DNA of 64,000 nucleotides, taken from Bacteroidota bacterium (GTDB lineage: Bacteria; Bacteroidota; Bacteroidia; UBA4408). How positions within the stretch are numbered: position 1 is the first letter of the stretch; every line of letters starts with the position of its first letter. The translations under genes were made by a program, and so were the position numbers. The notes beneath the pieces were generated by a model, which worked only from the letters and a program-made list of their open reading frames with translations, did not search any database and was not told the DNA's origin. The DNA lies in assembly GCA_016721765.1 (NCBI GenBank), contig JADKHO010000004.1, positions 800,409 through 864,408 on the forward strand. Direction: 5' to 3'. Of the stretch, positions 8,669-36,199 are shown in pieces.

Positions 8669-8770
8669 TGAAGATTATGTGCAACTTGGCAAATTAAGAG
8701 GGAACGCACCAATCTAGCATCACATTTCGTGTGATACTTTTTGTTAATTATCTTTACTTAAATCTTATAG

Positions 8771-9175
8771 CCCAATCCTACATGAAACCTATTTTCCTAT
8801 GATTCTATGTGTTTCAAAAAAAATATTCTTATAAAATAAAACACATAGGCACATAGGCCAATCCTATATGAAACCTATTTTACCTATGATCCAATGTGTT
8901 TCAAAAAAAACTTCCTTAAAAAAAAACACATAGGCACATAGGCCAATCCTATATGAAACCTATGCTTCCTATGATCCTATGTGTTTCAAAAAAATATTCA
9001 CATAAAATAAAACACATAGGCACATAGGCCAATCCTACATGAAACCTATGTTAACTATGATCCTATGTGTTTCAAAAAAAACTTCCTTAAAAAAAACACA
9101 AAGGCACATAGACCAATCCTATATGAAACCAATGTTTACTATGATCCTATGTGTTGCAAAAAAATATCCTCTTCA
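8771..9175. repeat. Intergenic tandem repeat, about 5 units of about 86 bp, each a near-palindromic hairpin built from CACATAGG/CCTATGTG octamers
   Basis: Units start near 8771, 8857, 8943, 9029 and 9112. Each has a left arm aaacacataggcacatagg, a loop ccaatcctatatgaaacctatt.., and a right arm cctatgatcctatgtgtttc, separated by A-runs (caaaaaaaa). Confidence 0.85.
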
Positions 9176-11214: not shown

Positions 11215-12228
11215 ATGTGGCATTTCCAAACAGGGATTTTAGTGTTTTTCCTTGCACTATCCATTTATACAAAGGCGCAGCAAGCAAGGCTATTTAAACC
11301 TTCCTTGGCTTTACATTATACGTATGTTCCGGAAAGTAAACTTCAGGATTCTGCAGGATCTTATTCAAAGCAAAGCGGTCAGCTCAGTTTTTTTATTCCC
11401 ATTTACAATCATATTATTTTAGGAGATTCCACGCACAAATCTTCTTACTTCCAGCTGATGACAAATGGCTCAGCAGCTTGGAGCAGTGCAGATTTATCGA
11501 ACGTAATGCAACAGCAACATCTACTTGGTGCATCGCTTGGTTTAAGTGCATTTTTGGTAAAAAACAGAAAAAACATTTTTTCCTTGTCTGTTAGTTCAAT
11601 GAGTCGAAATGATAACTATACCTTGGGTACTCCCGAAATTCGTTATGCCGGACTTGCACAATACCGTAGAAATGTGAGTAAGGGATTTTCGTTTCATATG
11701 GGATTGGGCTACTCCTATTTTATTGGTCGTGGTATTTTGTTTCCTGCACTGGGAATGAGTTTCAAAACAGGAAAACGAAGTCGCATGATTATTAATTTTC
11801 CGAGTCGCATATCTTTTGTGCAACGGATTGGTAACAAAGTTCGCCTTACTGCTTATTTAAAACCGCAGGGTGGATTTAATTACATTTCAAATCGAAGTGA
11901 ATACAGCCAATTTCCGAAGGCATTTTATTTTCGGCAAAGAGAAAATCATATAGGAATAACTACGAACATCAAGCTTAGCAATAGCTTTACCACAAGTGCT
12001 GACATCGGGTATGCTTTCCGCAGAAGCATCCGCCTAAGCGAAGGCCTGCAAAAAAACTCAAGTACCTTTTATAAAAGTGGAATTAATAATGGCGCCTATA
12101 TAGGTGTCGGACTTAAATATATTTTTGGTTCTCCAAAGCGCGATAAGGAAAAAGAAATTATTGGGAATGATTCCGAAAAGGAAGAGCTATTGAGTGATCC
12201 TGATTTTTATGATATTATTTCGGAGTAA
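11215..12228 (+). CDS. Hypothetical secreted / outer-membrane protein
   Basis: 337 aa. Signal peptide MWHFQTGILVFFLALSIYTKAQ and an alternating beta-strand-like pattern. No assignable family. Confidence 0.5.
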   Translation: MWHFQTGILVFFLALSIYTKAQQARLFKPSLALHYTYVPESKLQDSAGSYSKQSGQLSFFIPIYNHIILGDSTHKSSYFQLMTNGSAAWSSADLSNVMQQQHLLGASLGLSAFLVKNRKNIFSLSVSSMSRNDNYTLGTPEIRYAGLAQYRRNVSKGFSFHMGLGYSYFIGRGILFPALGMSFKTGKRSRMIINFPSRISFVQRIGNKVRLTAYLKPQGGFNYISNRSEYSQFPKAFYFRQRENHIGITTNIKLSNSFTTSADIGYAFRRSIRLSEGLQKNSSTFYKSGINNGAYIGVGLKYIFGSPKRDKEKEIIGNDSEKEELLSDPDFYDIISE

Positions 12229-12321: not shown

Positions 12322-13056
12322 CTAATGTTGCGCTAATTTGTATTTTTTGATCAGTTTTAAGGTATGCTTCATTGAATTTGTGCCTTTCCAACTGTTGTGC
12401 CCCGGAATAATAAATTTAGGTTTTCCAAATTTAGTTTGGATGTTCTTTATTGTAACTGACCATTCATCCACACTGGCATCACCAAGATAACCTAAGTCTC
12501 TTGCCTCTGTACTTTTAATGAGGCAACCGCCATAAAGTATTTTCTCCTTTTCAAACCAAATTACAATATTGTCGGGCGCATGCCCCTTGCCGGGATAATA
12601 GGTTTGAAAAGTATTTTGTCCAACTTTAAATAAAGTATCTTTTTCAATCAAAAATTCGGCTCGCTTTTGATTGTTTAATTTTGAGATTTTATCAGTTTGA
12701 ACGCTTGTGTAGGTTTTTATTCCTTGTTTCTTAAAATAGTCGAGCCCGCCTGTTCTATCTTCATGCGAATGCGTGGCAATGCACAAAAGAATATCTTTCC
12801 CATGCGTTTTCTTGATATAATTAATGAGCGGTTGAAATTGAGTAGTATCCCAAGGCGTATCAAACACAACAGCGCCCTGTTCGGTTAAGAGATACATGCC
12901 ATTAGCCGGAACCTGATATTCCTTATATGCATTGTAAGTGGTGTACACATAAAAATTGCCGGTGAGTGGAGTTACCTGCAATTTATCTGCATTCGATTGC
13001 CCAAAAACGCAGTTCGAAATAAAACAAAAAACAAGTTGTAAGCGTAACAAAAGCAT
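12322..13056 (-). CDS. Subclass B1 metallo-beta-lactamase (BcII/BlaB/IND-like)
   Basis: 244 aa with a signal peptide. It has H-S-H-E-D (HxHxD; Zn1 His116/His118, Asp120) and YYPGKGHAPDNIVIW (His196). Cys221 appears as GGCLIKS and His263 as PGHN. The protein is collinear with the Bacillus cereus BcII sequence recalled from memory. Confidence 0.85.
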   Translation of the reverse strand: MLLLRLQLVFCFISNCVFGQSNADKLQVTPLTGNFYVYTTYNAYKEYQVPANGMYLLTEQGAVVFDTPWDTTQFQPLINYIKKTHGKDILLCIATHSHEDRTGGLDYFKKQGIKTYTSVQTDKISKLNNQKRAEFLIEKDTLFKVGQNTFQTYYPGKGHAPDNIVIWFEKEKILYGGCLIKSTEARDLGYLGDASVDEWSVTIKNIQTKFGKPKFIIPGHNSWKGTNSMKHTLKLIKKYKLAQH

Positions 13057-13162
13057 AAAGATTTTGAAGAATTTACAAGTGTTTGTAAATAGTAATTATA
13101 ATTGTTTCCCGTCAATGCTTCTCGCGCGTACAGCAGTTGTGGATGCTGTAATTCGGAAACAA

Positions 13163-13804
13163 TTAATGATTCAAAAACTCATATTTAATGGAACAATTAA
13201 TTCCGACGCCTACCCCGAAATTGCCGGTATTTTTAAAAATAAATGTTCCAAATCCAGGCTGTCCGTTGGTAGCATTATTTACATCCTGTTCAAAATTAAT
13301 ATCTTCAGGAGAAAAGAAATTAAATATAGTTCCAAAATCGATGCTGAAATTATTCGACATTTTAATGAGTGTTCCAATGCCAATGAAGGTTCCTTGCAGC
13401 TTTTGCTCGGTTTTGATGACAAATTTTGATGCTTCATAAAAATCATCCTCGTCGATATTAGCTGTTTGTTTAAAATAAGAATGAATGAATCCTGCTGTTA
13501 CGTATCCATTGCCTTTAGCGCTGTGTGGTGCAAAATACAAACGCGGACCAATTTTAAAATAATACCCTTCGATTTTATTGTGCAATAAATTTAAATTTTT
13601 TCCTGCGCTGGTGCTGAATTGATAGCCTAAATCGCAGGTCAAACCCAGTCGCTGGTTGAGCATAAATTCGGTATTGATTTCTGCGTCTTTAAAAACTGCA
13701 TTCAATACATTAATACCGGTGCTAAATTGATGGTATTTAGTTGAATCTTGAGCCATTGTAGAAAAGGAAAGCAAGGTCATAAAGGCAAAAAATAGTTTCT
13801 TCAT
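13163..13804 (-). CDS. Small outer-membrane beta-barrel protein (OmpA-like barrel / porin family)
   Basis: 213 aa. Signal peptide MKKLFFAFMTLLSFSTMAQ, alternating hydrophobic beta-strand pattern, and a C-terminal aromatic residue. Confidence 0.55.
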   Translation of the reverse strand: MKKLFFAFMTLLSFSTMAQDSTKYHQFSTGINVLNAVFKDAEINTEFMLNQRLGLTCDLGYQFSTSAGKNLNLLHNKIEGYYFKIGPRLYFAPHSAKGNGYVTAGFIHSYFKQTANIDEDDFYEASKFVIKTEQKLQGTFIGIGTLIKMSNNFSIDFGTIFNFFSPEDINFEQDVNNATNGQPGFGTFIFKNTGNFGVGVGINCSIKYEFLNH

Positions 13805-13809
13805 AGGTC

Positions 13810-14295
13810 CTACTTAGTTAGCTGTAATTTTAAAATCTTATTTGCTTCGTCAAACTCTGGGTTTTTCGTTTTTTGCGAAAAAGTACAAATGGCAACTGTT
13901 GGTTTATCAATAGTGAGACGGTATCCACATTCATCCGAAAATTCAGCACGTGCGTTGTAATTATTCACCATCAAGGTTTCGGGTGCAACCGTATCTCCCT
14001 TGAATACGAAAGTGGTTTGTTCGTAATTATGCGCAATGGGTAATTTTAAGGAGGTGAATGCACTCCCATAACTGTAATCGTAATAACCATTGTAATCGGT
14101 CGGGTATGATTGGTTTACCTCAAGCACCACAAATGAGGAATAGCCGTTGGCCACAAAACCACCAATTCCGGAATAACTACCAATTTTAACGTTCAAATAA
14201 TCTTTGGTTACCAATCCAACCGAATTGCACGGTTGCTGCTTGCTACATGCGGCGAATAGAATGCCAACCGACAGTCCCAAAATCAGTTTTTTCAT
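13810..14295 (-). CDS. Hypothetical lipoprotein
   Basis: The internal Met yields [20 protein letters not shown], a lipobox with Cys. The ORF track starts at 14379, but that extension has no signal peptide, so the shorter form is preferred. Confidence 0.5.
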
Positions 14296-14391
14296 GTTGA
14301 AAATCTTTTTATAAAAGTAGAAATTATTTTGAACTCTGCTGCACCTAGAATTGCCTCTTGTTTTATTACCTTTGCACACTTAAAAAAAAAT

Positions 14392-15828
14392 ATGGCCATT
14401 CAAAAACCCTCTATTCCTAAAGGAACACGTGATTTTTCGCCGAGTGAAATGGTGAAACGGAATTATATTTTTGATTGCATCCGCACCCATTTTCAGCGCT
14501 TTGGGTTTTTGCCTATTGAAACTCCAGCCATGGAGAACCTGAGTACTTTAATGGGAAAGTATGGGGAAGAAGGGGATAAATTGATTTTTAAGATTTTGAA
14601 TTCAGGGAATTTTCTCACCAACATCGGTATCGATAAAAAAACTGTTGAAGAGTCAAATTCATGGAAGGAAAATTTTGTAGGAGATAAATTACCGCTTGAA
14701 GGTGTAATAAATGCTAATCAATTAAGCAATCTCATCTCTGAAAAGGCTCTAAAATACGATCTCACAGTACCCTTTGCCCGGTACGTTGTGCAACATCAAA
14801 ATGAAATTACCTTTCCGTTTAAGCGTTACCAAATACAACCGGTGTGGCGTGCCGACCGTCCCCAAAAAGGGCGTTACCGTGAGTTTTACCAGTGTGATGC
14901 CGATGTAATTGGAAGCAATTCATTACTGAATGAAGTAGAATTGGTGCAATTGATGGATGCCGTGTTTTCGGATTTAAAACTTCCGGTAATCATCAAAATC
15001 AACAACCGAAAAATATTGAGCGGCATTGCCGAAATAATTGGCGAAAAAGAGCGCATCATCGACATAACCGTTGCCATTGATAAATTAGATAAAATAGGTG
15101 TTGATGGGGTAAATAAAGAATTGGCTGAAGCCGGATTGAATTCAATTGCCATAGAAAAACTTCAGCCTTTGATAAACTTTGAAGGAACAACACTTGAAAA
15201 ACTAAATTTCTTAAAGCAATTGCTATCGAGCTCGCCCATAGGAGTTAAGGGAATTGAAGAGGTGGAACGTATTTTTGAAACCCTTCAACTATGCAAACTT
15301 AAGACAGCCCTTTTTGAGTTAGACATAACCTTAGCGCGTGGCCTAAATTATTACACCGGTGCCATTTTTGAAGTTAAAGCCAATGCAGGTAGCCTAAGAA
15401 GCAGCATTTGCGGTGGCGGCAGATACGATGACTTAACCGGCATATTTGGCTTGCCCAATATGAGTGGCGTGGGAATTTCATTTGGTGCGGATAGAATTTA
15501 TGATGTGTTGGAGGAATTAAATTTATTCCCTGAAAGTGTTGCCGCATCAACCAAAATTCTTTTTGTAAACTTTGGAAAAGCTGAAGAGAATTATTGCTTG
15601 CCATTGTTATCTAAATTACGGGATGCGGGTATTAACGCTGAACTCTATCCAGAATCAGCTAAAATGAAAAAGCAAATGAGTTATGCCGACGATAAAAAAA
15701 TACCTTATGTTGTACTGGTTGGTGGAGATGAAATTAACAGCGGTCAATTAACCGTTAAAAACATGCAGTTAGGCGAGCAAAGTAAAATGGATATTGACAG
15801 CTTGCTAAAAAGCATGCTTCAGTCCTAG
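14392..15828 (+). CDS. hisS: Histidine--tRNA ligase
   Basis: A class II aaRS with the HisRS N-terminus [20 protein letters not shown]. Motif 2 [11 protein letters not shown] and a C-terminal anticodon-binding domain are present. The start is moved to the internal Met at 14392. Confidence 0.9.
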
Positions 15829-19501: not shown

Positions 19502-22500
19502 TTATTTTTCCTGGGTATCAATTTTTTTAAGGAAAGATGTCTTCTTAGCTGCAGTGGAAAGATTGTAGGAATATTGTGTTTGGCCCTTTTCCACTTCCAT
19601 TTTACGTTTATCTGCTTTCATGTCGCGAATAATAGAATTAAATTTTTCATCGGATGAAATGGCTTGCATGAGGCTGGTTTGATAATTAAAGAAATACCAA
19701 TTGGCACCGTCAATTTCTAAATACACGGTAAGTATATCTCCAGCTCGCTTTTTAGCCAACTCAATTTTTCCACCCATAAATTTATTTATTTGGTTTTTAA
19801 ATACACTTCCTACGCCAATTGGTCCATCCGAAACAAAAGATTTAGTATTGGAATTCCATTTCATTTTCACATCGGTAAGTATTATTGAATGTTCCATCGC
19901 ATCAGGGAACTTCTTAAAAGAACCGTATAAATTCACTTGAGAAATTAATTTATCTGCATCCGCTTTACCGAGCATTTCGCGCAAAGCACGCTCATAAGTA
20001 GTGCGGCTAAGCGAAGCAAACGGAGCAGTGGATGTTTCGAAACGATTTCCCATGTTCTTTAAGGCATCGTCGGCAAAGAAAAAGTCAAGTGTAATTACTA
20101 CATCAAAGGCAACTGAATCATTTTGCAAATCATCCACACCATTTCCGTAAACATTAAATTTAACCTGTCCCAATCCATTGGTCATTTCCAATTTTCCTTC
20201 GGCATACAATTTACAATTGGCAGTATTTAAGCTCACATAATTTCCGGGGAAATTAATTTCTTTGATTTTATCCTTGTTTGAAATTTTGTATTCGCGTGAG
20301 GCTTTATCATAAAACAAATACCCATCAGCACCTGCAACAATTTGATCGCTAAAGGTAACTCGGCGGCTGAGGAATGCTGGATAGCAGTGTGTAGAATCAG
20401 CTGTATACATAATACCTGCCACCAGTTTATCGTTATTATTATCCTTCATATCTTTTGCAATAGGGATATAAATTTCACTCGGATTTATTTCTCCACTAAA
20501 GCTCAACCAGCTTTTTCCTATGTGTGGACATTCATGCTTGATGAGGAATGAACCGTCGAATGTGAGGAATTGTTGATTGGCATAGAGTTTTGCTTTACCG
20601 CGATAATCAAAGTACGGACTAAGTGTAAATTTAGATTCCTCGGTAATATCACCAATTGCAAAGGATTGGAAAGTAGTATCGGTAGAAATGTTTGTGAAAT
20701 GAATTTTTTGTTTCTCCTTGGTTTCGCTCACATAATCATAATCGCCCGAGCCGGAGTATTTTTTACGGGCCAAAATATTTACCGAAACATTGTAAATGTT
20801 GTGGTACTTTGTTACTAAGTTGGCCAATATTTTGGCATTGTTAAGTGTTTCCATTTTTGCTTTTTTCTGAATCACTACATTACCGCTATCCGGAAATATA
20901 CGGGCATCTGCAACGTTTATGTATTTAACTTCCTTACAAGAAATCAAATAACTCTTTAAATCGTAGCGTGCTCTTGGCGAGAAAAAGCGCAAGGAATCTT
21001 GATCCGGATGCACCGAAATAAACTCAGACCCTTCCAAATTCAATGAACCTTCATCCGACTCTTCGGCTGTGTTGTTATTGACTGAAGTTTTTGATTTGGT
21101 AGAAGCCGAAAGTTCTATACTTTTTTGATCCATAAACCAAGTAAATTTATCCATGAAACAGATGTATTGATTTACTGGAAAATTTACAAAAGAACCTTCT
21201 CCATTGCTCTTAAAGACACCTTGTCGTTTTGCAAAATCAACGTGCGCATTTACATTCTTAGTGCTAAATGCAAGGGCACTCAACTCTTCTGCATTCAACT
21301 GAAAATCGGAAGTATCGGCATCAAATGTAATTTTATTGAAAACCATTTTATCTGAAAACAAGGAGGCTTTTGAAAAATCCATTCGCCCTTTACCGGTCAT
21401 ACCTGTTGGTGTTAGCGTTGATTTACCAAATAATTCAGCTTGTCCGGTATAAAAATCCATGGGCTTTCGGATTCCATTGTCTTCCATGTAATCTTTGTAA
21501 GGCATCCAATGTGCATAAACACTGTCACCCTTCACCGGAGGAAATTCAATGGCGCCTGCCTGTTCTTTGTTTTCAAAGCTTTGCGCAATTGCGTTCATGG
21601 AATCAGGGAAGAAAATAAAGTCCTTGCTTTTGGTGGTGGAAGTTACATACTCCAACGTTCCATCTCCACGCAAACCTTTATTACTAAGTTTAATGGTGGA
21701 AGTATACGTTCCTTTGTTACCATACATAGGGAATCCACCGGCAGGTGTTTCACGTTTAAAACCAAGTGAATAATCTTCTTGTAAACGCAGCGTTTCATCA
21801 AAGTCGGGAAAAATTCCTCCAGAGGCCAATGTACCTTTAAATGCCAAGGCTTCATTTGTAAAGTTATCCAAGCTATCGATGGTATAAGGGGTTAACTTAA
21901 AATAAAAACTATCGCGCTTATAAACTCCCTTTTGAATACCACTGCGCGAATAATAAGCAAAAGATTCCTTCTTGCTATTAAAGATGGGATAATCCGGATA
22001 ATCCACTGTACCCGATTTATTCGTTGGTCGATCAATCAACAAATCACCGTTTACACTTTCTATAACTGTTTTACAATACACCAATTTTCGTTCGTTGTAT
22101 TCATTTACCTCGTTAGCCAACACCTTTATTCGTAAGGAATCCACGTTGGTTAAATTAATCTTGAAGAGGGTGTAATCAAAATTAAATTCCTTTCCGAAAA
22201 ACTGAAATCGACCGGCATTAACAACACCCGCAAAATCAAAATCGCGATTTTTGCGCACCAACACCGTTTGGTTTTTAGGATAAATATTTACGTTTTGTGA
22301 ATCACTTAAAAAGATGCGTTCCACACCGTCAATACGCAAATCGAAATTCAACAAATTAAGGCTGGCGTTGGTTTCGCTTCCACCTACTGTAGAATTAAAT
22401 TGAATCACATCATAATCGCGCTTTTTCTCGCTGTTGCGGATATAATCAAACAATCGATCCTTCACTACCACTTTATCTAAATCCACATTATAAGTTAAGA

Positions 22501-23989
22501 AACCACCATTTGCCAAAATCATCAACATGGGTTTAACTTGATCCGGAGAGAGTTGCATAAAACGCGATAAACTTACAGGGTCAAATTCCTTACCACCTGC
22601 ATTTTGCTTCATCACAAATTGACGAATGCGGTACAAGGGATTCACATCATCCATACCTTGCAAACGCTCAAAACGCGCAGCTCTAAAAAATGCAGAGGAC
22701 TCAAATAGAGCTGAGCTTTCAGCACTACCTTTAATATTTTTTAATTCAATTTTTGGTTCATCCATTCGCCAATACAAGGCTTCAAAATACATGTCAAGTT
22801 TATGAAAGCTATCAAAATAGGGCGTTCTAGCCGTTCCTTGCTGGTCGCGGATGAGTACCACTTCCTTATCCTTATAACTAAACTTTAGCTGCAAGCCTGG
22901 ATGATAGATAGAATCCCCATCAAAATAAAAAGTTATTTCTGCTTTGTCGGAAGTAATGCGTTCCGGCTTCATGATATACTGCAAGGAGGCGGACTTTAAA
23001 AACAATTTCTTATTACGGAAAAATTTTAAGAACGCAGGATTGTCTCTGTCGCCTGTTCCAATTATTTTAGAGCCCTTTACCGAAAAGCCTCCATCATAAT
23101 CCACATCCTGATAAATGTTGGCAATTACCAAACGTTTATCATACGAATCAAATTGAGGATACACGGCGCGCTCTTCGGTCATGTTCACAAATACTTTATC
23201 TTGTAATACCCCGAGTAGTGGCTTTTGAAAATAAATAGTGTTATGATACAAGACAGAATCGGCACGGTATTGTGATGATTTAAATACAATAGAATATCTT
23301 TTTAACTCAGCATAAGCTTGCTCAGCAGGCACTCCGGCGCGTCTCCAATTTACCGTTCCTCCCTTCCCTATCCAACGCTGAGTACTGGGATAATAGGTTC
23401 CTTGGGTAGAATAAATAACTGAACTATCATCCTTAATAATACAGCGCAAATCCGTTTCACCAAACACCACTTTGGGAACACTGTCGAATTCAAAAGTATA
23501 ATTGCTCCCACTAGCTTTCCACTCAAGTGTTGAATTTTTGAAAATGGTATTGGTAGAAAATAAGTTATCGCTCATCTCAATAAAATCGCTGAACTTGTTG
23601 GCACTTTTTCCTAGAATTTTATCAATACTTAATTGCCAGGCTGTAAAACTTTTATCGGTTTGACCGGAGTTAACAAAGTTCATAGCCGAAGACAAATAAT
23701 TTTTAAAATCTGGAAACATCTTAAGGCGCTTTGCAAACATCAAGTTGCAAGTACTAATCATAATACCTTGCTGACTGCTGGTAAATTTTTGACCATTCCA
23801 AGCCACTTCAAAAAGCTCCATAAATTCATGAGTTGCCTTTTTATCTTGGTCTTCCATTTGATCTTTAATTTTTTTAAGAAACTCAGTTGGGTCATCCGGG
23901 AATACTTTCTTCACTAGTGTTTGCGAAAAAGCATTCTCCATTCCAATGGAAAAGATGAGAACAACAAGAAGAAGTTTGATTTTATTCAT
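19502..23989 (-). CDS. Large (about 1495 aa) secreted hypothetical protein
   Basis: A long uninterrupted ORF with a signal peptide (MNKIKLLLVVLIFSIGMENAFSQ at the internal Met). No T9SS C-terminal domain and no catalytic motif recognised. It lies downstream of prmA/tpiA on the same strand. Confidence 0.6.
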   Translation of the reverse strand: MNKIKLLLVVLIFSIGMENAFSQTLVKKVFPDDPTEFLKKIKDQMEDQDKKATHEFMELFEVAWNGQKFTSSQQGIMISTCNLMFAKRLKMFPDFKNYLSSAMNFVNSGQTDKSFTAWQLSIDKILGKSANKFSDFIEMSDNLFSTNTIFKNSTLEWKASGSNYTFEFDSVPKVVFGETDLRCIIKDDSSVIYSTQGTYYPSTQRWIGKGGTVNWRRAGVPAEQAYAELKRYSIVFKSSQYRADSVLYHNTIYFQKPLLGVLQDKVFVNMTEERAVYPQFDSYDKRLVIANIYQDVDYDGGFSVKGSKIIGTGDRDNPAFLKFFRNKKLFLKSASLQYIMKPERITSDKAEITFYFDGDSIYHPGLQLKFSYKDKEVVLIRDQQGTARTPYFDSFHKLDMYFEALYWRMDEPKIELKNIKGSAESSALFESSAFFRAARFERLQGMDDVNPLYRIRQFVMKQNAGGKEFDPVSLSRFMQLSPDQVKPMLMILANGGFLTYNVDLDKVVVKDRLFDYIRNSEKKRDYDVIQFNSTVGGSETNASLNLLNFDLRIDGVERIFLSDSQNVNIYPKNQTVLVRKNRDFDFAGVVNAGRFQFFGKEFNFDYTLFKINLTNVDSLRIKVLANEVNEYNERKLVYCKTVIESVNGDLLIDRPTNKSGTVDYPDYPIFNSKKESFAYYSRSGIQKGVYKRDSFYFKLTPYTIDSLDNFTNEALAFKGTLASGGIFPDFDETLRLQEDYSLGFKRETPAGGFPMYGNKGTYTSTIKLSNKGLRGDGTLEYVTSTTKSKDFIFFPDSMNAIAQSFENKEQAGAIEFPPVKGDSVYAHWMPYKDYMEDNGIRKPMDFYTGQAELFGKSTLTPTGMTGKGRMDFSKASLFSDKMVFNKITFDADTSDFQLNAEELSALAFSTKNVNAHVDFAKRQGVFKSNGEGSFVNFPVNQYICFMDKFTWFMDQKSIELSASTKSKTSVNNNTAEESDEGSLNLEGSEFISVHPDQDSLRFFSPRARYDLKSYLISCKEVKYINVADARIFPDSGNVVIQKKAKMETLNNAKILANLVTKYHNIYNVSVNILARKKYSGSGDYDYVSETKEKQKIHFTNISTDTTFQSFAIGDITEESKFTLSPYFDYRGKAKLYANQQFLTFDGSFLIKHECPHIGKSWLSFSGEINPSEIYIPIAKDMKDNNNDKLVAGIMYTADSTHCYPAFLSRRVTFSDQIVAGADGYLFYDKASREYKISNKDKIKEINFPGNYVSLNTANCKLYAEGKLEMTNGLGQVKFNVYGNGVDDLQNDSVAFDVVITLDFFFADDALKNMGNRFETSTAPFASLSRTTYERALREMLGKADADKLISQVNLYGSFKKFPDAMEHSIILTDVKMKWNSNTKSFVSDGPIGVGSVFKNQINKFMGGKIELAKKRAGDILTVYLEIDGANWYFFNYQTSLMQAISSDEKFNSIIRDMKADKRKMEVEKGQTQYSYNLSTAAKKTSFLKKIDTQEK

Positions 23990-23994
23990 TGTAT

Positions 23995-24828
23995 TTATTT
24001 TTGTAATCCTATTAAAGCCCAATTATTTTTAGTGATTTTTTTAACCAAATGAAAACCCAATTTTTGTGCGTGCTCAAATAATAAAGGTGTATCCACATCA
24101 AAGAATCCACTAATTAACAATTCACCCTTTTCCTCCAATGCAGCATAGTAATGAAACATGTCGTTAAGCAAAATATTTCGATTAATATTGGCCAAAATAA
24201 TATTGAATTTATGCCCTTTTAAAAGTGCGGCATCTCCAAGTTTAACGCATATCTGTGGACAACTATTTAAAGCACAATTTTCAAGTGAATTTTCATAACT
24301 CCAAGAATCATTATCAATAGCCAACACTTCCTTAGCAGTTAGTTTTGCAGCTAAGATTGCCAACACTGAAGTTCCACATCCCATATCAAGCAAACTTTTA
24401 CCGGCAATATTCATAGCTAGTAATTGCTGCAACATTAAATAGGTGGTTTCGTGATGTCCTGTTCCAAACGACATTTTGGGTTCAATTATAATATCGTATT
24501 TTGCTGTGGCTGTTTTTGGATGAAAAGGAGCGCGCACTGTACAAATACCATCCACATCAATAGGTTCAAAATTACTTTCCCAAGAAGCGTTCCAGTTTTG
24601 AGCAGGTATTTCCTTTTTTGTGAAAGAAATTTTACATCCGCGCTCCGCATAAGCAGCAAGCAGCTTAGCTAATTTTGCTGCATCAAATAAGCCCTTTTGA
24701 ATAAATGCTTGCAAGCCGGTATCTAGGTTGACAAAACTTTCAAACCCAACTTCTGCAAGTTCGGCAGTGAGAATATCATCAAAAGGATGAAGTGGCACGA
24801 GTTCAAAATTGACTTCAATATAATCCAT
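23995..24828 (-). CDS. prmA: Ribosomal protein L11 methyltransferase
   Basis: 277 aa with the SAM-binding motif LLDMGCGTSVLAILAAKL and overall PrmA architecture. Confidence 0.85.
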   Translation of the reverse strand: MDYIEVNFELVPLHPFDDILTAELAEVGFESFVNLDTGLQAFIQKGLFDAAKLAKLLAAYAERGCKISFTKKEIPAQNWNASWESNFEPIDVDGICTVRAPFHPKTATAKYDIIIEPKMSFGTGHHETTYLMLQQLLAMNIAGKSLLDMGCGTSVLAILAAKLTAKEVLAIDNDSWSYENSLENCALNSCPQICVKLGDAALLKGHKFNIILANINRNILLNDMFHYYAALEEKGELLISGFFDVDTPLLFEHAQKLGFHLVKKITKNNWALIGLQK

Positions 24829-25890: not shown

Positions 25891-27018
25891 GTGAAAAAGG
25901 AAAAAATTAAACTCATCTATATTATCTCGGATATCGACCGTGCCATTGCATTTGAGTGGGTAGTTGAAAATATAGACCGAAGTAAATTCGAGCTTGAATT
26001 CGTATTGATAAATTCCTCCGAATCTTATTTTAAAAATTATTTGAGTAAAAAAGCGGTACCCTTTTATTTAGTAGAGGCCAAATCAAAAAAACAGTATCCG
26101 GCAGCGCTTCTTTCCCTAATTAATCATTTGAGAAAATCAAAAGCCGACATGGTGCATACCCACCTGTTTACTGCCTCCCTACTCGGTTTAACCGCAGCAC
26201 GAATTTGTGGCATAAAAAAAAGAATTCACACGCGACACCATGCTTCTCAGCATCACATGTACCACCCCAATGCCATAAAATACGATAGGTGGATTAATTT
26301 TATATCCACAAAAATAATTGCTATCACTGAAAATGTGAAAAACATTTTAATACAACAAGAAGGAGTTAAAAAAGATAAAATAGTAATTGTTCACCATGGT
26401 TTTGATTTAGATTTTTTTTCATCTGTATCTGCCGATCGTATCCAAGCTATAAAAAACAAATACAATGCTTCACAACAGTATCCAATAATTGGTGTTGTTT
26501 CGCGTTATACTTGGTGGAAAGGGGTACAACACATTATTCCGGCTTTTAAAAAGCTATTAGTTGATTTTCCAAATGTAAAATTAGTATTGGCAAATACGAA
26601 TGGTAACGATGCTTTGCGTATTAAAGAATTGCTGAAACAAATTCCTTCCACAAATTTTCTTGAAGTTGAATTCGAATACGACAATGCAGCACTCTATCAC
26701 TTATTTGATGTGTTTGTGCATGTACCTATTAATGCGCATGCAGAAGCATTTGGACAAACCTATGTAGAAGCCTTAGCAGCCGGAATTCCTTCTGTATTTA
26801 CCCTTTCGGGAATTGCACATGATTTTATTGTTGACAAAAAAAATGCGGTGGTGGTAGACTATGAAAAGGAAGAAGAAATTTATGATGGTATGAAACTTAT
26901 ACTTCAAAATAAGGAACTGAAAAGCACCCTAATAAAAAATGGATTGAACGATGTCACTCAACTCTTCTCCTTAAAAACCATGATTTCTGAACTTGAAAAA
27001 ATTTATCTTGAAAAATAA
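25891..27018 (+). CDS. Glycosyltransferase family 4 (GT-B fold) protein
   Basis: 375 aa. The C-terminal EAFGQTYVEALAAGIPSV motif is typical of GT4 retaining glycosyltransferases. Confidence 0.75.
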   Translation: MKKEKIKLIYIISDIDRAIAFEWVVENIDRSKFELEFVLINSSESYFKNYLSKKAVPFYLVEAKSKKQYPAALLSLINHLRKSKADMVHTHLFTASLLGLTAARICGIKKRIHTRHHASQHHMYHPNAIKYDRWINFISTKIIAITENVKNILIQQEGVKKDKIVIVHHGFDLDFFSSVSADRIQAIKNKYNASQQYPIIGVVSRYTWWKGVQHIIPAFKKLLVDFPNVKLVLANTNGNDALRIKELLKQIPSTNFLEVEFEYDNAALYHLFDVFVHVPINAHAEAFGQTYVEALAAGIPSVFTLSGIAHDFIVDKKNAVVVDYEKEEEIYDGMKLILQNKELKSTLIKNGLNDVTQLFSLKTMISELEKIYLEK

Positions 27019-27106
27019 AACTAAGGCATATTCTAAAATTAAAACCAGCTTCATTGCATCTATTAAAATCCTTGAAGATACTACTGCAGGCTCATTAACG
27101 ATAGGG

Positions 27107-28426
27107 ATGAAATTATTTGCTTGCGTGCTGCTATTTCAATTTTTTATGCTATCACAAAGAGTAAGTGCTTCTCATGTGTTGCCTCATAAAAGTACTGAAG
27201 ATTATTTTACTCCCGATTACCTGCGTTTTGAAAACATTATCTATAAAGAAAATATTAAAACGGTTCAACTTGCTCCATCAGGCGCAGAACTTGCCTTTCC
27301 AATTATTGAATTAAACGGCGAAGATAAATTGCAATTGAGTTTTGACGATTTGGATGCCGATCGAAAAACATATAATTATACCTTGATACACTGCGATGCC
27401 TCATGGAACCCAACGAATATGGTGCGCAGTGATTACCTTTCCGGATTTAATGACGAACTTATTACAGACTATAAATTTTCATTTAATTCCATTCAACGTT
27501 ACACCCATTTTAATTTAGTATTTCCAACAGACGGAATAAAAATTACAAAATCAGGCAATTACATTATTAAAGTTTTTCAAGATTACGATGAACAAAATGT
27601 GGTGCTTACGCGTAGATTTTTGGTGTACGATAAAAAAGTGGATGTTGTGGGAAGTGCCAAAGTTGCAACAATTATTAACGACCGCTATACAAAACAAGAA
27701 GTAGATTTTAACATTAATAATCCCGATTTTGAAATTAACGACCCTTTCGAAAATTTAAAAGTTACGCTGCTTCAAAATCAGCGTTTCGACAATGCCATCA
27801 CTTCACTCAAGCCAACATTTACGAAACCCGGACAATTGGTTTACGATTATGATGAAGGCAACGTTTTTAATGGCGGAAATGAGTTTCGCTATTTTGAAGA
27901 TAAAGTTTTTAACGCACCTAATGAACGCATCAGTCGCTTTGTTTTTGATGAAAAAAAGCAAAACAATGTGTATCTCCTTCCGGAAGAAAAAAGAGCATTT
28001 AAGCGTTATAGTTCTATGCGCGACATCAATGGGAGTTATGTTATTCGCACCTTAGCGGGATATGATGGTGACACGGATGGAGATTATGCCTATGTTCATT
28101 TTTCTTTACCATGCGTTGAACCCTTGCAAAATGCGGAGGTATATGTTTTTGGTGCCCTTAGCAATTGGAATTATTTGCCCGAGTTTAAAATGAATTACGA
28201 CACTACTTTTTCAACTTATGTGGCGAGTCCATATTTAAAACAAGGGTATTACAATTATTCCTACGTGGTTTTGAAAAACGGAGAAACAATTGCAGATGAA
28301 AGTACCTTCGAAGCCAATCATTACGAAACAGAAAACGATTATTATATTTTGGTTTACTACAAAACATTCGGCACTTATTATTATCAGTTAATCGGTTATA
28401 AACGATTAAACAGCACAGGAAAATAA
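27107..28426 (+). CDS. Bacteroidota-specific secreted hypothetical protein (possibly DUF5103-like)
   Basis: Signal peptide MKLFACVLLFQFFMLSQRVSA at the internal Met. The track ORF starts at 26993 and overlaps the GT4 end. Rich in Tyr/Asn beta-strand pattern. The family is assigned from memory only. Confidence 0.45.
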   Translation: MKLFACVLLFQFFMLSQRVSASHVLPHKSTEDYFTPDYLRFENIIYKENIKTVQLAPSGAELAFPIIELNGEDKLQLSFDDLDADRKTYNYTLIHCDASWNPTNMVRSDYLSGFNDELITDYKFSFNSIQRYTHFNLVFPTDGIKITKSGNYIIKVFQDYDEQNVVLTRRFLVYDKKVDVVGSAKVATIINDRYTKQEVDFNINNPDFEINDPFENLKVTLLQNQRFDNAITSLKPTFTKPGQLVYDYDEGNVFNGGNEFRYFEDKVFNAPNERISRFVFDEKKQNNVYLLPEEKRAFKRYSSMRDINGSYVIRTLAGYDGDTDGDYAYVHFSLPCVEPLQNAEVYVFGALSNWNYLPEFKMNYDTTFSTYVASPYLKQGYYNYSYVVLKNGETIADESTFEANHYETENDYYILVYYKTFGTYYYQLIGYKRLNSTGK

Positions 28427-28553
28427 AAAATGTAAATTGTTAAAATTGCTTCCAATCCCTTTTAAGAACAAAAATCTGTTAAGAAAATTTCGATGGTTAC
28501 TTGTGTGAAAGAAAAACTTATTGCTATTATTGCTGCCGAAGTTTTACATTCGA

Positions 28554-28940
28554 ATGGTAACAGAAATTACAAAAGGCATCCGCATCTCAGTAAATACGCG
28601 CTATCAGGAAGAATTTTCCAGTCCTGATAACCTGCATTTTATTTTTTCTTACCACATCATAATTGAAAATCAAAATGAATTTGCAGTGCAATTGCTACGC
28701 AGGCATTGGTATATTTTTGATAGTTCAGGTGAACAATCGGAAGTAGAAGGTGAAGGCGTTGTGGGTGAACAACCGGTATTACAACCAGGTCAAATTTATG
28801 AATACGAAAGTGCTTGTAATTTAAATACCGATTTGGGCAAAATGCATGGAACCTACACTATGGTGCGTCAATCGGATGGAGCCTATTTTGAAGTATTGAT
28901 TCCCGAATTTCAGTTGATAGTTCCTTATAAATTGAATTAA
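28554..28940 (+). CDS. apaG: ApaG (DUF525) protein
   Basis: About 128 aa. Conserved ApaG segments are present: ISVNTRYQEE.., YHIIIENQN.., WYIFDSSGEQSEVEGEGVVGEQPVLQPG. Confidence 0.8.
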   Translation: MVTEITKGIRISVNTRYQEEFSSPDNLHFIFSYHIIIENQNEFAVQLLRRHWYIFDSSGEQSEVEGEGVVGEQPVLQPGQIYEYESACNLNTDLGKMHGTYTMVRQSDGAYFEVLIPEFQLIVPYKLN

Positions 28941-28944
28941 TTTT

Positions 28945-29967
28945 TCACTGCCGGATTTTTTTAAATCTAAAGTCAAAACTCAGACAAACCTTCATAAGCT
29001 TTGCTAAATTCGATTTTCGCTGCATGTCGCAAACCAACTGGTGTCGCGTAAAATCATGCGGATTAAATTCCTTATGTGCACCTTCTTGTAAGCCAATGTA
29101 TTGATTTAAACTTACGATTCCCATTCCAATCAAAATCATAAGCTGAAGAAAAAAATTGCGTTTGTTCTTGTTATCATAATCCAATGCCAAAACCATTTCA
29201 TACACTTTTTGCAATTGGTTTTCGAATTCTTGTTTGGTTTGCCTCATATCCTTTGATGCCGTTGCAAAGGTTGAAATTCCATTCATACTATCCTTCCACA
29301 CATCAAAAATATCGTTCACCTGTTGCAGCAAACTTCCCAATTCATATATGCAATCGTGTTCTTTTTGCCCCAATGGATTTGAGAGTGTGATACGGTAAAA
29401 TAAATGCGAGAGGCCACCTTTGTCGCTGCTGATTTTCTTTAATTCTTGCGCAGATAAATTTGAATTGATTTGCTTTTCGGTTTCAATTTGAACCTTGTAA
29501 ATATGAAGAAACATTGCATCAAAATCCTTTTTATCTTCCAAGTTCTGATGCACTTGTTGCAGAAAAAATAAAAATAATCTATCAACTGAATTTTCTGCCG
29601 CATAGGAGAAAGGATTGTCCATCATTTCCATTACGCGGGCATTTTTACGCTTGGGGTGATCAAAAAAATCATCGTACAAACCGGTAAGAGCTCCTTGAAA
29701 AGTAAGTACTTTTCGTTCCCTTTCAGTCATTTTACTTCCTCGCAGCGTACAATAGTTTTCGCCAACTATTGCAACAACAAAAAGCGCATAATAATTTCTG
29801 ATCTTAGCAAAATCGGCTGCTTCAAGACTTCCATCATTGGATTTTTGGGCAGCTGCTAAATGTGGTTCGAGATATTTTTTGAGGTAGTTTCTTTGTCGGT
29901 TAAGCTGCGCTACAAGCTTAGCCGAAACTCTAACATAAGGAAAAAAATTACGCCACATCCTACTCAT
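28945..29967 (-). CDS. Hypothetical protein, possibly squalene/phytoene-synthase-like (head-to-head isoprenoid synthase fold)
   Basis: 340 aa. An aspartate-rich motif GLYDDFFD and a second motif ELGSLLQQVNDIFDVWKD resemble the CrtB/SQS boxes DDxxD and (D/E)LGxxxQxxNDxxD. The match is weak overall. Confidence 0.35.
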   Translation of the reverse strand: MSRMWRNFFPYVRVSAKLVAQLNRQRNYLKKYLEPHLAAAQKSNDGSLEAADFAKIRNYYALFVVAIVGENYCTLRGSKMTERERKVLTFQGALTGLYDDFFDHPKRKNARVMEMMDNPFSYAAENSVDRLFLFFLQQVHQNLEDKKDFDAMFLHIYKVQIETEKQINSNLSAQELKKISSDKGGLSHLFYRITLSNPLGQKEHDCIYELGSLLQQVNDIFDVWKDSMNGISTFATASKDMRQTKQEFENQLQKVYEMVLALDYDNKNKRNFFLQLMILIGMGIVSLNQYIGLQEGAHKEFNPHDFTRHQLVCDMQRKSNLAKLMKVCLSFDFRFKKIRQ

Positions 29968-29990
29968 CTCCTCACTGCTGACGCTTGCAA

Positions 29991-32900
29991 TTATTTAAGT
30001 AAATACATTTTGCCCCAGCCCTTTTTAAAATAACCATCGGCTTGTGTTTCACGTTTTTCGATGTTCTCAGAATTTAGTTTTGTAACGGTGCGGTAAAAAT
30101 AAACTCCGTTGGCCAATTGATCGCCAAAGTTATCTTTCCCATCCCAGGCATATTGGGTGATGTTTCTTCCAATGTGAATCGGCCCCAATTCATCTTGAAA
30201 AATTTCTCGAACAACTTTCCCACTGATAGTCATAATTTGGATTCTAAAATTTTGCGGAATTTCACTTCCCGTTAAGGTAAACACAAAGCGTGTAGAGGTA
30301 CTAAACGGATTCGGATAATTCATCACTTCGGTGATACTCGATTTGTTTACTACTTCAAAACTGATTCGATAATCAATATCACCTGAACGGTTATTGGATT
30401 TGTCGCGTGCTTGAACGATTAATTGATACACACCATCTTCACTCAGATTGGGGCTATATTCCACTTTACATCTATTATCCGGCAACTGAGCAGGGATAAA
30501 ACGTAGTGAAGCCCCATCAAATGGAATCAACACATCGGCATTTTGATTGGGATAGCGAATAAACACTTTAAATAACACAGAAGTATCCAAAGCCAAATAA
30601 TTGCTTTCATCCTTTAATTGAACCGAAATGGCAGGTTTTGCAGAAACTAAATCTCCATCCAAAATATGCACCCCGTCAAAAGTTACATCCAACAATGGAT
30701 TCACTTTATCCTTTGTAGCCGTAAATTCTTTTAAAGCAAAATTATTAAAGTGAAATTGCTCCGCTTGATCGTAGTTAGCACTTCCTGTTTTAATTGGATT
30801 TGCTTCCATAAATAAGGTATTTATTCCATCAAAACCTAATGTTGAGAAGGCAATGCTGGCAACTAATGTATCGTGAGCAAGTAATTTTTTGTAGCGTTGC
30901 GACTTGAGTTCATGAATCACTCTGTTTTTATCAACCAGCCAAAAACGAACCAATAGGCTGTCCATATTTATGTTGCTGATGTTTTCGATGGCTACTTTAA
31001 ACTTTACCAAATCCCCTTCCAACACTTGGCTACTTTCAAAATTATAGCTAAGCAGCGGATTTACGGCAGCCTCCGGAATTTCTTCATAAATCACTTGCCA
31101 GCGCTTAAGTTGTGATGCAGTGAAACTGATATCGTCTTCGGTAAACTCACTGAGGCGCAGGTAAGGATATTGTGCCGCACTAATATTTTGAATGCTCATA
31201 TCTGCTCTGAATGCAGCTGAATCCTTCAATATAATCTCCTGCCCATTAACATTCACCCCATACACTCTAAATCGAATATTATCATTCGTTGGCTGTTCGA
31301 TTGATTGCGCTTGCCAATGCAAGGAATCCCATCTGGCCGAAGGACCAATTAAGCCGGAAATAATTTCACCGCTTTTACGGCTGTTACTCATGTTTTGGCT
31401 TAAACTAATTTGAACATGTCCTGTATCGCCAATAACAACGTGCACCGAACTTGGGTCGCCTACCTTTGCAAAATAAATCCATGGCTTTGTGCCGTAAATT
31501 GTACGCAATGCAGCAAAACCTAGCGTATCAAAATAATCAAAAATTCTGGCTTTGTTTTTCCAACCCGGATTGGCATATCCCCAGGTATACGCTAGGATGT
31601 AGTTTCCAACCGGAATACTGTCGAGCAATGATTTACCAAGATTCTCCATTTGAAGTGAATCGCCGGCGCTGAACGTAAATAATTTCATGGGGCCATAACG
31701 ATTTGGGCAATTATTATTGTCGTTGCCGTTTCCTAAATTATGTCGAGGATTATATGTAAAAGTGGAACCTCCGGTAGTATCAATAAATCGTGTTGCCCAA
31801 GCTTCCAAGGTAGTGCCATCAATAATTCCAACTTGTATCTTAAATCCGCCGCCACAAGTTGCAGATTCTTGCAATTGCCCGTCAATGGAATAAGAAGTAG
31901 CATACAAATCAGGAATAGTAGGCACTCCGTAGGTTTGACAAAACAAATTCTTTTGCGCCGGAATCAGACTAAATTTACGATTCAAACTATCGTAATTCAA
32001 AAATTTAAATTCATCCTTTTTAAATTGTGGAAAATGTGCCTGAGCCCAGCCAGTTTTGTTTTTAATGTATTGAAATGAACTTTGTTTCCAAAATATAGGT
32101 TGATGCGTTCCGGTTGAATCACGACTTACTCTCCAATAATAAACCGTACTATCTTGTAAAATATAAGGCACTTTCCATTTCAAAACGCCACCTGCCGAAA
32201 CAATAGTAGTATCGCGATAAAATGCCTGAAAACTATTAAATGCTTCATTGGTATCAATTTGAATAAAATAGCGCGCCGAGGGCGCAAGTGGGTCAAAGGT
32301 GCTAGCAACAAGACTTATACGGTTGTCGGGAACAATAGCAAACGGATATGGATAGACCGGCGAAATAAATCCGGAAGCAATATTTAATGTATTAACGGCC
32401 GCATTATTAATGCTGTTATCAAGTTCATCAATCACATTTCCCTCATCCACTATCACGTCAAATTTATTCAATCCAATTCCATTCACGCGATCAACCGGAA
32501 GTTTAAAAGCATACACATCGCTGTAATGCACACCCGGAATTACCTTGGTGTATACTTTAGGAGCAATGTTTCCCGGAAAAATTCGCTTTAACTGAATTAC
32601 ACTGGAATCATCAATAGCTTTTGCAATATTATTTACCCGCACATTCACAAAAAATGAATCCAAATTTGCGGTGATAGAATTGTTTCCTTGTATACCTGAA
32701 GTAAAGAAAATATCAGGCGATTCAATTTGATAATCGGGTTTAGCAAAAGCATTTAAAACCAAAGCAGGGTCGCCATGTAAAGTCATTTCGAGACACAGCG
32801 CTTTCATATATAAAAAGTTCGACTGAATGTTTAGCACGGATTTTTTCATCGCAAAAGAAATGGGCTTCCCATAATCGGTTTTTCCAATCGTAGTGAAAAA

Positions 32901-35084: not shown

Positions 35085-35128
35085 ATTTTTTATTTCAATT
35101 TATTGAAATAGCTTGCGTGCGCAAAATA

Positions 35129-36199
35129 TTAATGCTTGGGATTCAAATCCACTTTTATCGAAAACACATGCGACAACAAGCCAAAGTTTTGACCCACGTT
35201 AGCCAATGCATAATCTATTGAAAGTGATTTAAACAACTTCACTCCCACTCCAATGTTAGGTTGTGTAACATAGCTTGCCAATGCATTTAAATCCTGCACC
35301 TTTTGTATATTTCCAATACCTCCACGCAAAAAAATCAAATTGTCATATCCAACTTCTATCCCAATATGCGGGTCAACACTTATTGGGTCGCCTTTAAAAA
35401 TCACATTGCGTTTACCATCAAAGGTTGCATCCAAGTTAATTTCAGCAAGTCCGCTAAACTTTTTATAAGCTACAGTTCTTCCCACTCCTAAAATTAATTT
35501 AGGCAAGGTAATTTCTAAGCCATTTTGAGGCAATTCGTTACCGGTTTGTTCAAAGATGTATTTTGTTTGATCATCCAAGTTATAGGTCCAGGAATTAAAG
35601 GTGGTAGATACATCCCGCACCATGGCACCCAACTTCCAATCTCCGCTGCGGTATTGCACACCGGCATCTAAACCAAAACCCCATGCACCTGCAAAATCAC
35701 CAACTTTACGTCGTATAACCTTTGCATTCGCACCAATTTTTAAACCCTCAATTTTCAATTTTTTAGCATAGGATAGGATAAATGCATAATCCGCTGCCGA
35801 AAAGGTAGTAATGCGGTCATAATCAATTTGCCCATTGGCATCAATCAGTTCGGTAGTATTGGGAATATCATCCACACCAAATCGAACAATGCTCAACCCA
35901 ATTGAACTGCTGCTGTCAATTTGCTTTGCCAATGCACCATAATCGTATTTGGCAATACCCGCAAAGTATTCGGAATGCATAAGGATCACTTCAAAATTAT
36001 TTTTCAAACCTGCTAAACCTGCAGGATTCCAATAGCCTGAAGTGACATCGCTTACTGTTGCAACACTCGCATTACTCATTCCTAAAGCCCTTGCCCCTAC
36101 TCCAATGGCTAAAAACTCATTGCTGTATTTACGCGTTTGCGCTTGGGCAGTTAAGCAAGTAATGGTCAAAAGGGTCAAAATCAATCTCCGTTGTATCAT
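35129..36199 (-). CDS. porV: Type IX secretion system outer-membrane protein PorV (LptO)-like, FadL-type beta-barrel
   Basis: 356 aa. Signal peptide, then FLAIGVGARALGMSNA, matching the conserved PorV N-terminal box. It is upstream of and co-directional with the PorU-like gene. Confidence 0.6.
   Translation of the reverse strand: MIQRRLILTLLTITCLTAQAQTRKYSNEFLAIGVGARALGMSNASVATVSDVTSGYWNPAGLAGLKNNFEVILMHSEYFAGIAKYDYGALAKQIDSSSSIGLSIVRFGVDDIPNTTELIDANGQIDYDRITTFSAADYAFILSYAKKLKIEGLKIGANAKVIRRKVGDFAGAWGFGLDAGVQYRSGDWKLGAMVRDVSTTFNSWTYNLDDQTKYIFEQTGNELPQNGLEITLPKLILGVGRTVAYKKFSGLAEINLDATFDGKRNVIFKGDPISVDPHIGIEVGYDNLIFLRGGIGNIQKVQDLNALASYVTQPNIGVGVKLFKSLSIDYALANVGQNFGLLSHVFSIKVDLNPKH

Follow-up and report, generated by a model that had tools for sequence, protein, structure and literature searches.

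Two questions are raised by a 64,000-nucleotide stretch of Bacteroidota DNA (contig JADKHO010000004.1, assembly GCA_016721765.1), the whole of which is called the window here. Does the gene at positions 12322-13056, which reads as a subclass B1 metallo-beta-lactamase (MBL), encode a working enzyme, and does it belong to the place where it is found? A sequence-only reading had taken it for an intact chromosomal B1 gene with kinship to BlaB and IND, and had considered it native. All sequence and structure tests that were run agree with the core of that reading. Very probably the gene is functional and encodes a secreted B1 enzyme with two zinc ions, of the BlaB/IND/MUS lineage; it is carried on the chromosome of an uncultured Bacteroidota bacterium and vertically inherited among sister species under strong purifying selection. 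The history of the locus is less simple, as the gene is resident and without mobile elements among close relatives but is absent from the locus in remoter ones.

A subclass B1 enzyme of the BlaB/IND/MUS family

The span that had been proposed coincides exactly with an open reading frame (ORF) of 244 aa. Its strand had been left unstated; the gene is on the minus strand, with the ATG at 13056 and a TAG stop codon at 12322-12324, and this ATG is the first available start following an in-frame stop codon.

The translated sequence exceeds two curated NCBIfam cut-offs. For subclass B1 (equivalog model NF033088) the score is 263.1 bits where 200 are required, and the match spans positions 3-217 of the 217 in the model; for the BlaB/IND/MUS family (NF012146) it is 310 bits where 270 are required, over positions 11-237 of 237. 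The best match to a B1 model in NCBIfam has an E value of 7e-106. In a search of PDB sequences BlaB-1 (1m2x) is the best match at 1e-72, followed by IND-7 (3l6n) at 1e-58, and the MBL of Pontibacter korlensis (6xfr) and BcII (about 2e-46) are among the other top matches. Identities taken from gapless PDB alignments are 47.2% to BlaB-1, 40.0% to IND-7 and 36.6% to BcII. The collinearity with BcII that had been claimed is seen in the HMMER alignment, where residues 25-237 of the query are paired with residues 10-222 of BcII with zero gaps.

Important are the residues of the active site. The four motifs on which the sequence-only reading relied, HSHED, GKGHAPDN, GGCLIKS and PGHN, are all found, HSHED at residues 96-100 and the other three with their ligands at residues 159 (His), 178 (Cys) and 220 (His). 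The Zn1 site is complete, with His96, His98 and His159 aligned to positions 116, 118 and 196 of the class B beta-lactamase (BBL) numbering, and so is the Zn2 site, with Asp100, Cys178 and His220 aligned to positions 120, 221 and 263. Lys181 corresponds to BBL Lys224. For these equivalences we presume the standard BBL scheme. The six ligands and Lys224 are identical in BcII, BlaB-1 and IND-7, and their columns are invariant in an alignment of 41 family members (alignment A1). At BBL position 233 the MBL has Tyr, as do BlaB-1 and IND-7, and its closest metagenomic relatives have Asn as their consensus residue.

An AlphaFold2 model was built from alignment A1 and compared with the PDB by Foldseek. 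The model has a mean pLDDT of 91.2, and its first match is BlaB (1m2x), with a target-normalised TM-score of 0.97 and a root-mean-square deviation (rmsd) of 1.0 A. Target-normalised TM-scores to IND-7, GIM-1, BcII and IMP-1 are 0.87-0.95. The predicted structure is an alpha-beta/beta-alpha sandwich that is superposable on solved B1 enzymes.

With these matches, the possibility of a non-lactamase enzyme with the MBL fold, such as a glyoxalase II-like protein, a lactonase or a nuclease, has a practically negligible probability. In its favor is the Pfam result, in which only the generic superfamily domain PF00753 was matched. However, the protein scores above the cut-off of the specific B1 equivalog model, and the DCH site, which contains Cys221, is a diagnostic signature of the B1 and B2 lactamases. 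It was among non-lactamase MBL-fold proteins that the sequence-only reading had placed its own refutation, and none is found there: the 50 structural matches listed by Foldseek (IND-7, GIM-1, DIM-1, TMB-1, BcII, IMP and VIM among them) and the top sequence matches are without exception B1 lactamases.

A signal peptide had also been claimed, and it was assigned here from the sequence pattern together with the structure model. The pattern is typical, with a basic Arg5, a 13-residue hydrophobic core (mean Kyte-Doolittle value of 2.0) and the sequence V-F-G/Q, where the slash marks the predicted cut in a V-x-G cleavage motif. The order M-[RK]...hydrophobic...[FIL][GAS]/Q is present in 41 of the 41 aligned family members, and the column of Gln20 is invariant. 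In the model, a helix at residues 2-16 is followed by a low-confidence linker and by the folded domain, which starts at residue 26. In Bacteroidota, the proteins cut by signal peptidase I characteristically have Gln at the +1 position (the "Q-rule"). Sequence and model together thus suggest that the protein is exported to the periplasm.

A membrane-anchored lipoprotein like NDM, instead of a soluble periplasmic protein, was considered because the N-terminal region holds two cysteines, Cys11 and Cys16. Neither is in a lipobox: their contexts are L-V-F-C and I-S-N-C, and Gly, Ala or Ser is required at position -1. In addition, neither cysteine is a conserved feature of the family, in contrast to the [FIL][GAS]/Q motif. 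The lipoprotein form is therefore very improbable and was rejected.

The family to which the gene would be assigned by name is a separate matter. By raw score the two top specific NCBIfam models are NF000450 (bla-B1-FLAV) and CAM, both matched over the full length, but no named-family cut-off is reached by the MBL. Scores and cut-offs in bits are 353/450 for bla-B1-FLAV, 343/535 for CAM, 271/500 for BlaB and 261/400 for PEDO-3, and further 239/500 for SPI, 232/540 for WUS, 227/550 for TUS, 224/540 for MUS, 213/430 for IND and 201/475 for EBR. Thus the MBL, if characterised, would count as a new named family. Just two database clusters exceed 70% identity, P0001 (97%) and P0002 (85%), and with these the MBL would make a family of its own under the 70% clustering of Berglund et al.

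BlaB-1 of Elizabethkingia (Chryseobacterium) meningoseptica is similar to the MBL in a gapless alignment of 216 residues, in the identity of the six ligands, Lys224 and Tyr233, in an FG/Q-type signal peptide and in being a chromosomal resident of a Bacteroidota host. It differs in host lineage and is just 47% identical, and with the score for the BlaB model far from its cut-off the gene is not a BlaB allele. The CAM family (CAM-1 from Pseudomonas aeruginosa, CAM-2 from a Pyrinomonadaceae metagenome-assembled genome, MAG) and NF000450 supply the best-scoring specific models, yet the MBL is far under their cut-offs; moreover CAM-1 is housed in an integrative and conjugative element (ICE) flanked by ISCR14, whereas the gene described here has no mobile context. 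IND-7 of Chryseobacterium indologenes, PEDO-3, MUS, TUS and EBR have the BlaB/IND/MUS super-family model, the architecture and the ligands in common with the MBL, but IND-7 is 40% identical and the individual models all score below cut-off. BcII of Bacillus cereus, the B1 archetype, has identical ligands in a gapless alignment of 213 residues, but the identity is 37% and BcII has Asn at position 233 where the MBL has Tyr.

Selection, predicted activity and transcription

Orthologues of the MBL gene are found on four metagenome contigs. The protein from one (L070) is 97% identical and those from the other three (L066, L067 and L071) are 85-86% identical, and all four have kept the six ligands, Lys224 and Tyr233. 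The ratio of nonsynonymous to synonymous substitution rates (dN/dS, Nei-Gojobori method) against the 85-86% orthologues is 0.05-0.08. This shows strong purifying selection, and the gene is thus maintained by selection and not a decaying pseudogene.

A total of 4133 database proteins match the MBL at E <= 1e-20. The nearest MBLs beyond its own clade are 57-67% identical. These bear the same NCBI family name and are mostly from Chitinophagaceae, Ferruginibacter and Chitinophagales MAGs. Such unnamed BlaB/IND/MUS genes of Chitinophagaceae, Ferruginibacter and other Bacteroidota MAGs are kin of the MBL, but their neighbour genes are not those of the window. Among GTDB representative genomes there is no match above 69%, and the 69% match is partial; an identical protein sequence is not on record. 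The histidyl-tRNA synthetase (HisS) of the window has matches of 88-89% on short metagenome contigs and then of no more than 78% to Bacteroidota or Bacteroidia MAGs.

Two GTDB loci (L035 and L038) that are labelled "Bosea thiooxidans" and "uncultured Bifidobacterium sp." also carry genes of the BlaB/IND/MUS type, 56-57% identical to the MBL. A binning or labelling error is more likely here than genuine cross-phylum carriage.

The mechanism proposed for the MBL follows what is established for B1 enzymes in general. The Sec pathway would export the precursor, and signal peptidase I would cut it behind Gly19, which would leave an N-terminal Gln. In the periplasm, Zn1 would be bound by His96, His98 and His159, and Zn2 by Asp100, Cys178 and His220. 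A hydroxide between both metals would attack the carbonyl of the beta-lactam, and Lys181 (BBL 224) would hold the substrate carboxylate. Penicillins, cephalosporins and carbapenems, but not aztreonam, are the expected substrates, and inhibition by ethylenediaminetetraacetic acid (EDTA) is expected. From the sequence we infer, and strongly so, that the function is probably that of an EDTA-sensitive broad-spectrum beta-lactamase with carbapenems in its range.

Related enzymes bear on this inference. BlaB, IND and CAM are all carbapenemases; CAM-1 and CAM-2 are proven ones, with imipenem minimal inhibitory concentrations of 32 mg/L in E. coli (PMC9241868). When computationally predicted new B1 genes were expressed in E. 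coli, imipenem was hydrolysed with 18 of 21, and with 6 of the 8 that were not from Proteobacteria (Berglund et al., PMC5637372).

Several points weigh against a working carbapenemase. In the Carba NP test with E. coli the remaining 3 of the 21 predicted genes gave no activity (PMC5637372), and some Bacteroidota B1 enzymes are poorly expressed in that host (PMC13616975). Tyr at position 233, in place of the Asn consensus of the closest relatives, is a weak point only, because BlaB-1 and IND-7 have Tyr there too. The Bacteroidota -7 box (TAnnTTTG, with at most one mismatch) is absent from the 106-bp spacer upstream of the MBL gene.

A protein with the true B1 fold that is an ineffective carbapenemase, or is not meaningfully expressed, should therefore be considered; narrow spectrum, poor zinc affinity or a different natural substrate are possible forms of it. 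The inactive minority of predicted genes, the lack of a recognised promoter and an identity of just 47% to the nearest characterised enzyme that was directly compared all point in this direction. On the other side are the intact ligands and Lys224, the superposition of the model on BlaB at 1.0 A, the carbapenemase activity of the related enzymes, and the low dN/dS, by which the protein is under selection. On balance such a protein is unlikely, and a functional B1 enzyme is preferred.

With no -7 box in the spacer, transcription of the MBL gene may rely on upstream genes or on a promoter of unrecognised type. Matches of the sigma-70 type near the gene number 7, where 8.4 are expected from shuffled sequence, so that there is no excess. 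A terminator adjoining the gene was not detected, the terminator scan being no better than with shuffled sequence. Upstream on the same strand are two genes whose products belong to the envelope: hyp213, with a signal peptide, and hyp161, with a signal of the lipoprotein type that ends in LFAAC. Co-transcription of the MBL gene with hyp213 and hyp161 is possible.

Occupied and empty sites at the locus

On contigs L066 and L067, where HisS is 89% identical to that of the window, the gene order is the same as in the window: alanine dehydrogenase (AlaDH), DUF4258, DUF6268, MBL (minus strand), hyp213 (minus strand), hyp161 (minus strand), HisS, enoyl-CoA hydratase, E1 dehydrogenase and PlsY. On L070 and L071 the immediate flanks of the MBL gene are also those of the window. 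From this synteny the gene is read as inherited in place since the split of the window species from the species of L066 and L067.

The locus is different in remoter relatives. On contig L073 the stop codons of the DUF6268 and hyp213 genes are only 11 bp apart and there is no MBL gene between them; the proteins of this contig are 76% (HisS), 92% (E1), 65% (hyp213) and 46% (DUF6268) identical to those of the window. On L076 (HisS 77%), orthologues of hyp213 and hyp161 adjoin hisS, and the MBL gene is again absent. The hisS neighbourhoods of L072/L077 and of L075 are wholly different and hence are uninformative on the MBL site. Given the sites without the gene on L073 and L076, the segment 12229-13162 is a gene-sized insertion or deletion without the scars of a mobile element. 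Alignment of the occupied and empty junctions revealed no recognisable target-site duplication or residual sequence.

Thus the claim that the gene is native stands in part. The sister species have it in synteny and no mobile element adjoins it, but L073 lacks it in the corresponding slot and L076 lacks it beside its neighbour genes.

The claim that no mobile element is adjacent can be extended to all 64 kb. Transposase, integrase and recombinase domains were not detected by Pfam in window ORFs of at least 120-150 aa, there are no tRNA genes and no Rfam matches in the window, and the inverted or direct repeats that flank the MBL gene are just short matches at chance level. The GC content of the gene, 0.35-0.37, equals that of its neighbours in the interval 10.5-14.4 kb, with no island-like step. 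In a tblastn search of 72,556 plasmids the best match is 49% identical, on a replicon of Chondrinema litorale (Bacteroidota), and plasmid-borne GIM, IMP, TMB, VAM and MYO are 32-35% identical; there is no sign of the lineage on clinical plasmids in this set. No link to an integron, transposon, ISCR, ICE or plasmid, the mark of an acquired (mobile) MBL, was found.

The MBL gene is also the most diverged gene of the syntenic block. Against L066 its nucleotide identity is 81%, compared to 85-95% for the other genes. Its synonymous divergence (dS) is 1.1-1.4, compared to 0.33-0.63 in those neighbours for which dS was computed, although a dS above 1 over 243 codons is imprecise. The parts least conserved with respect to the sister species are the 5′ end of the gene and the spacer upstream of it.

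These observations bear on the origin of the gene and not on its function. A bare gene of about 930 bp may have been inserted between DUF6268 and hyp213 in a recent ancestor shared with the sister species, with horizontal transfer or relocation within the genome as the source. The 11-bp junction on L073 and, on L076, the hyp213 and hyp161 orthologues beside hisS without an MBL gene speak for such an insertion. The divergence of the gene relative to its block fits as well, as does the result from 65 GTDB loci with MBL relatives (32-69% identical, mostly 50-65%): in a tblastn search with ten neighbour proteins none of these loci has a neighbour gene in common with the window, the sole match being one weak E1-dehydrogenase paralogue. 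However, transposase, integrase, terminal repeat, target-site duplication and tRNA are all lacking, and the gene does not stand out from its immediate neighbours in GC content. A clean deletion in the L073 lineage fits the empty site equally well. In addition, L073 and L076 are short contigs, so that the gene may sit elsewhere in those genomes, and the high dS has the imprecision already mentioned. Insertion is thus a serious candidate, with a chance a little short of even. The data for the locus fit either an insertion in the ancestor, with a possible recombinational exchange of alleles, or a deletion elsewhere together with the faster evolution of a secreted protein.

Because presence and absence of the gene are free of scars and its dS is 2-4 times that of the flanks, exchange by homologous recombination should also be considered. 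In a broader and rather doubtful form of this idea, resident B1 genes of uncultured Bacteroidota could be swapped or replaced among related species, with conserved flanks as the substrate of homologous recombination, and the present lineage, which is at most 47% identical to any structurally characterised enzyme, could have an unusual substrate profile.

Surroundings of the gene and the Bacteroidota reservoir

Coordinates of the MBL gene, its parts and its flanking features are in Table 1.

Table 1. Positions in the window of the MBL gene, its functional sites and the adjoining features.
Feature	Positions	Strand	Basis
Segment of about 934 bp (MBL and both spacers), present here and in sister species; 11 bp in L073	12229..13162		Gene tables, junction alignment, flank orthology
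Subclass B1 metallo-beta-lactamase precursor coding sequence (BlaB/IND/MUS family), 244 aa, stop included	12322..13056	-	ORF, NCBIfam, PDB, Foldseek
Signal peptide, residues 1-19 (MLLLRLQLVFCFISNCVFG), predicted signal peptidase I cut before Gln20	13000..13056	-	Family pattern and AlphaFold2 model
H-S-H-E-D motif, residues 96-100 (BBL His116, His118, Asp120)	12757..12771	-	Gapless BcII/BlaB-1/IND-7 alignment
His159 codon (BBL His196), third Zn1 ligand	12580..12582	-	Gapless alignment
C-L-I-K, residues 178-181 (BBL Cys221, Zn2 ligand, and Lys224, substrate carboxylate)	12514..12525	-	Gapless alignment; Cys178 codon 12523-12525
His220 codon (BBL His263), Zn2 ligand	12397..12399	-	Gapless alignment
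Spacer of 106 bp, hyp213 stop codon to MBL start codon	13057..13162	-	Least conserved stretch against sister species, 69-73% identity
DUF6268 protein, flanking, convergent with MBL	11215..12228	+	Pfam PF19783; orthologue at L066/L067 occupied site and L073 empty site
hyp213, secreted protein of 213 aa, no Pfam match, directly upstream of MBL	13163..13804	-	Orthologues in L066-L071, L073, L076
hyp161, probable lipoprotein of about 161 aa, signal ending LFAAC; first gene of possible three-gene same-strand unit	13810..14295	-	Orthologues of 161 aa

The start of hyp161, a gene without a Pfam family, was set at Met29 (position 14295) of a 189-aa ORF at 13810-14379, as in L066, L067 and L073; the longer version with a GTG start would overlap the region upstream of hisS. 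A plus-strand ORF of 157 aa at 12956-13429 spans the 106-bp spacer and reaches into hyp213 and into the 5′ end of the MBL gene. It was judged to be spurious because the two genes that it overlaps have well-supported homologues.

The locus belongs to the core chromosome of a Bacteroidota organism, and the surroundings are housekeeping genes. Genes in the window include those for transketolase subunits, MgtE, a class-V aminotransferase, an MqnC-like radical SAM protein, TsaE, alanine dehydrogenase, HisS, enoyl-CoA hydratase, a fused E1 dehydrogenase, PlsY, PrmA, TpiA and SecDF. A cluster of type IX secretion (T9SS) genes is also present at 26993-36199, with a T9SS plug-domain protein (26993-28426), a PorU-like C25 peptidase of 1697 aa (29991-35084) and a PorV-like protein (35129-36199), and thus confirms the Bacteroidota host.

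Several other features of the window were observed. The genes for TsaE and alanine dehydrogenase are separated by an AT-rich spacer that contains a tandem array at 8767-9167, with 4.7 copies of an 86-nt unit and 87% matches. Each unit folds into a stable hairpin on the plus strand (-20.1 kcal/mol, z = -4.9). The array has no Rfam match, and none of the 77 fetched loci contains its core 17-mer. Between plsY and prmA is a 1506-aa ORF (19502-24022, minus strand) with no Pfam match at E <= 1e-4, which is about 90% nucleotide-identical in L066. HisS has 16 additional aa (48 nt) in its N-terminal third compared with the 462-aa orthologue of L066 (hisS, 14505-14954). At 89% aa identity, HisS is unusually diverged for a housekeeping gene, compared with 99.5% for AlaDH and 98% for E1 in the same block.

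The occurrence of an MBL gene in such a chromosome is not exceptional. B1 genes were found in 22.4% of Bacteroidetes genomes (Berglund et al., PMC5637372), and a 2026 survey puts the share of Bacteroidota species with true B1 homologues at 33.1% and lists hundreds of B1 enzyme families in Flavobacteriia and Cytophagia (PMC13616975). In the same survey Chitinophagia are counted among the soil-associated Bacteroidota that are proposed as likely donors of B1 genes to Proteobacteria (PMC13616975). Since about a quarter to a third of Bacteroidota species carry such a gene, the MBL is an ordinary one. It adds to a known kind of enzyme and is not a new kind, and thousands of similar unnamed genes from metagenomes already exist. 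With no evidence of mobility or of a link to a pathogen, its direct clinical weight is small.

The MBL is thus one more unnamed lineage in a very large and documented environmental reservoir of B1 enzymes in Bacteroidota. The locus itself may be of more use, as the pair of occupied sites (the window, L066 and L067) and empty site (L073) is a possible test case for the gain and loss of resident MBL genes without mobile elements. Exchange by homologous recombination, if true, would be a route of MBL spread that is missed by screens for mobile elements.

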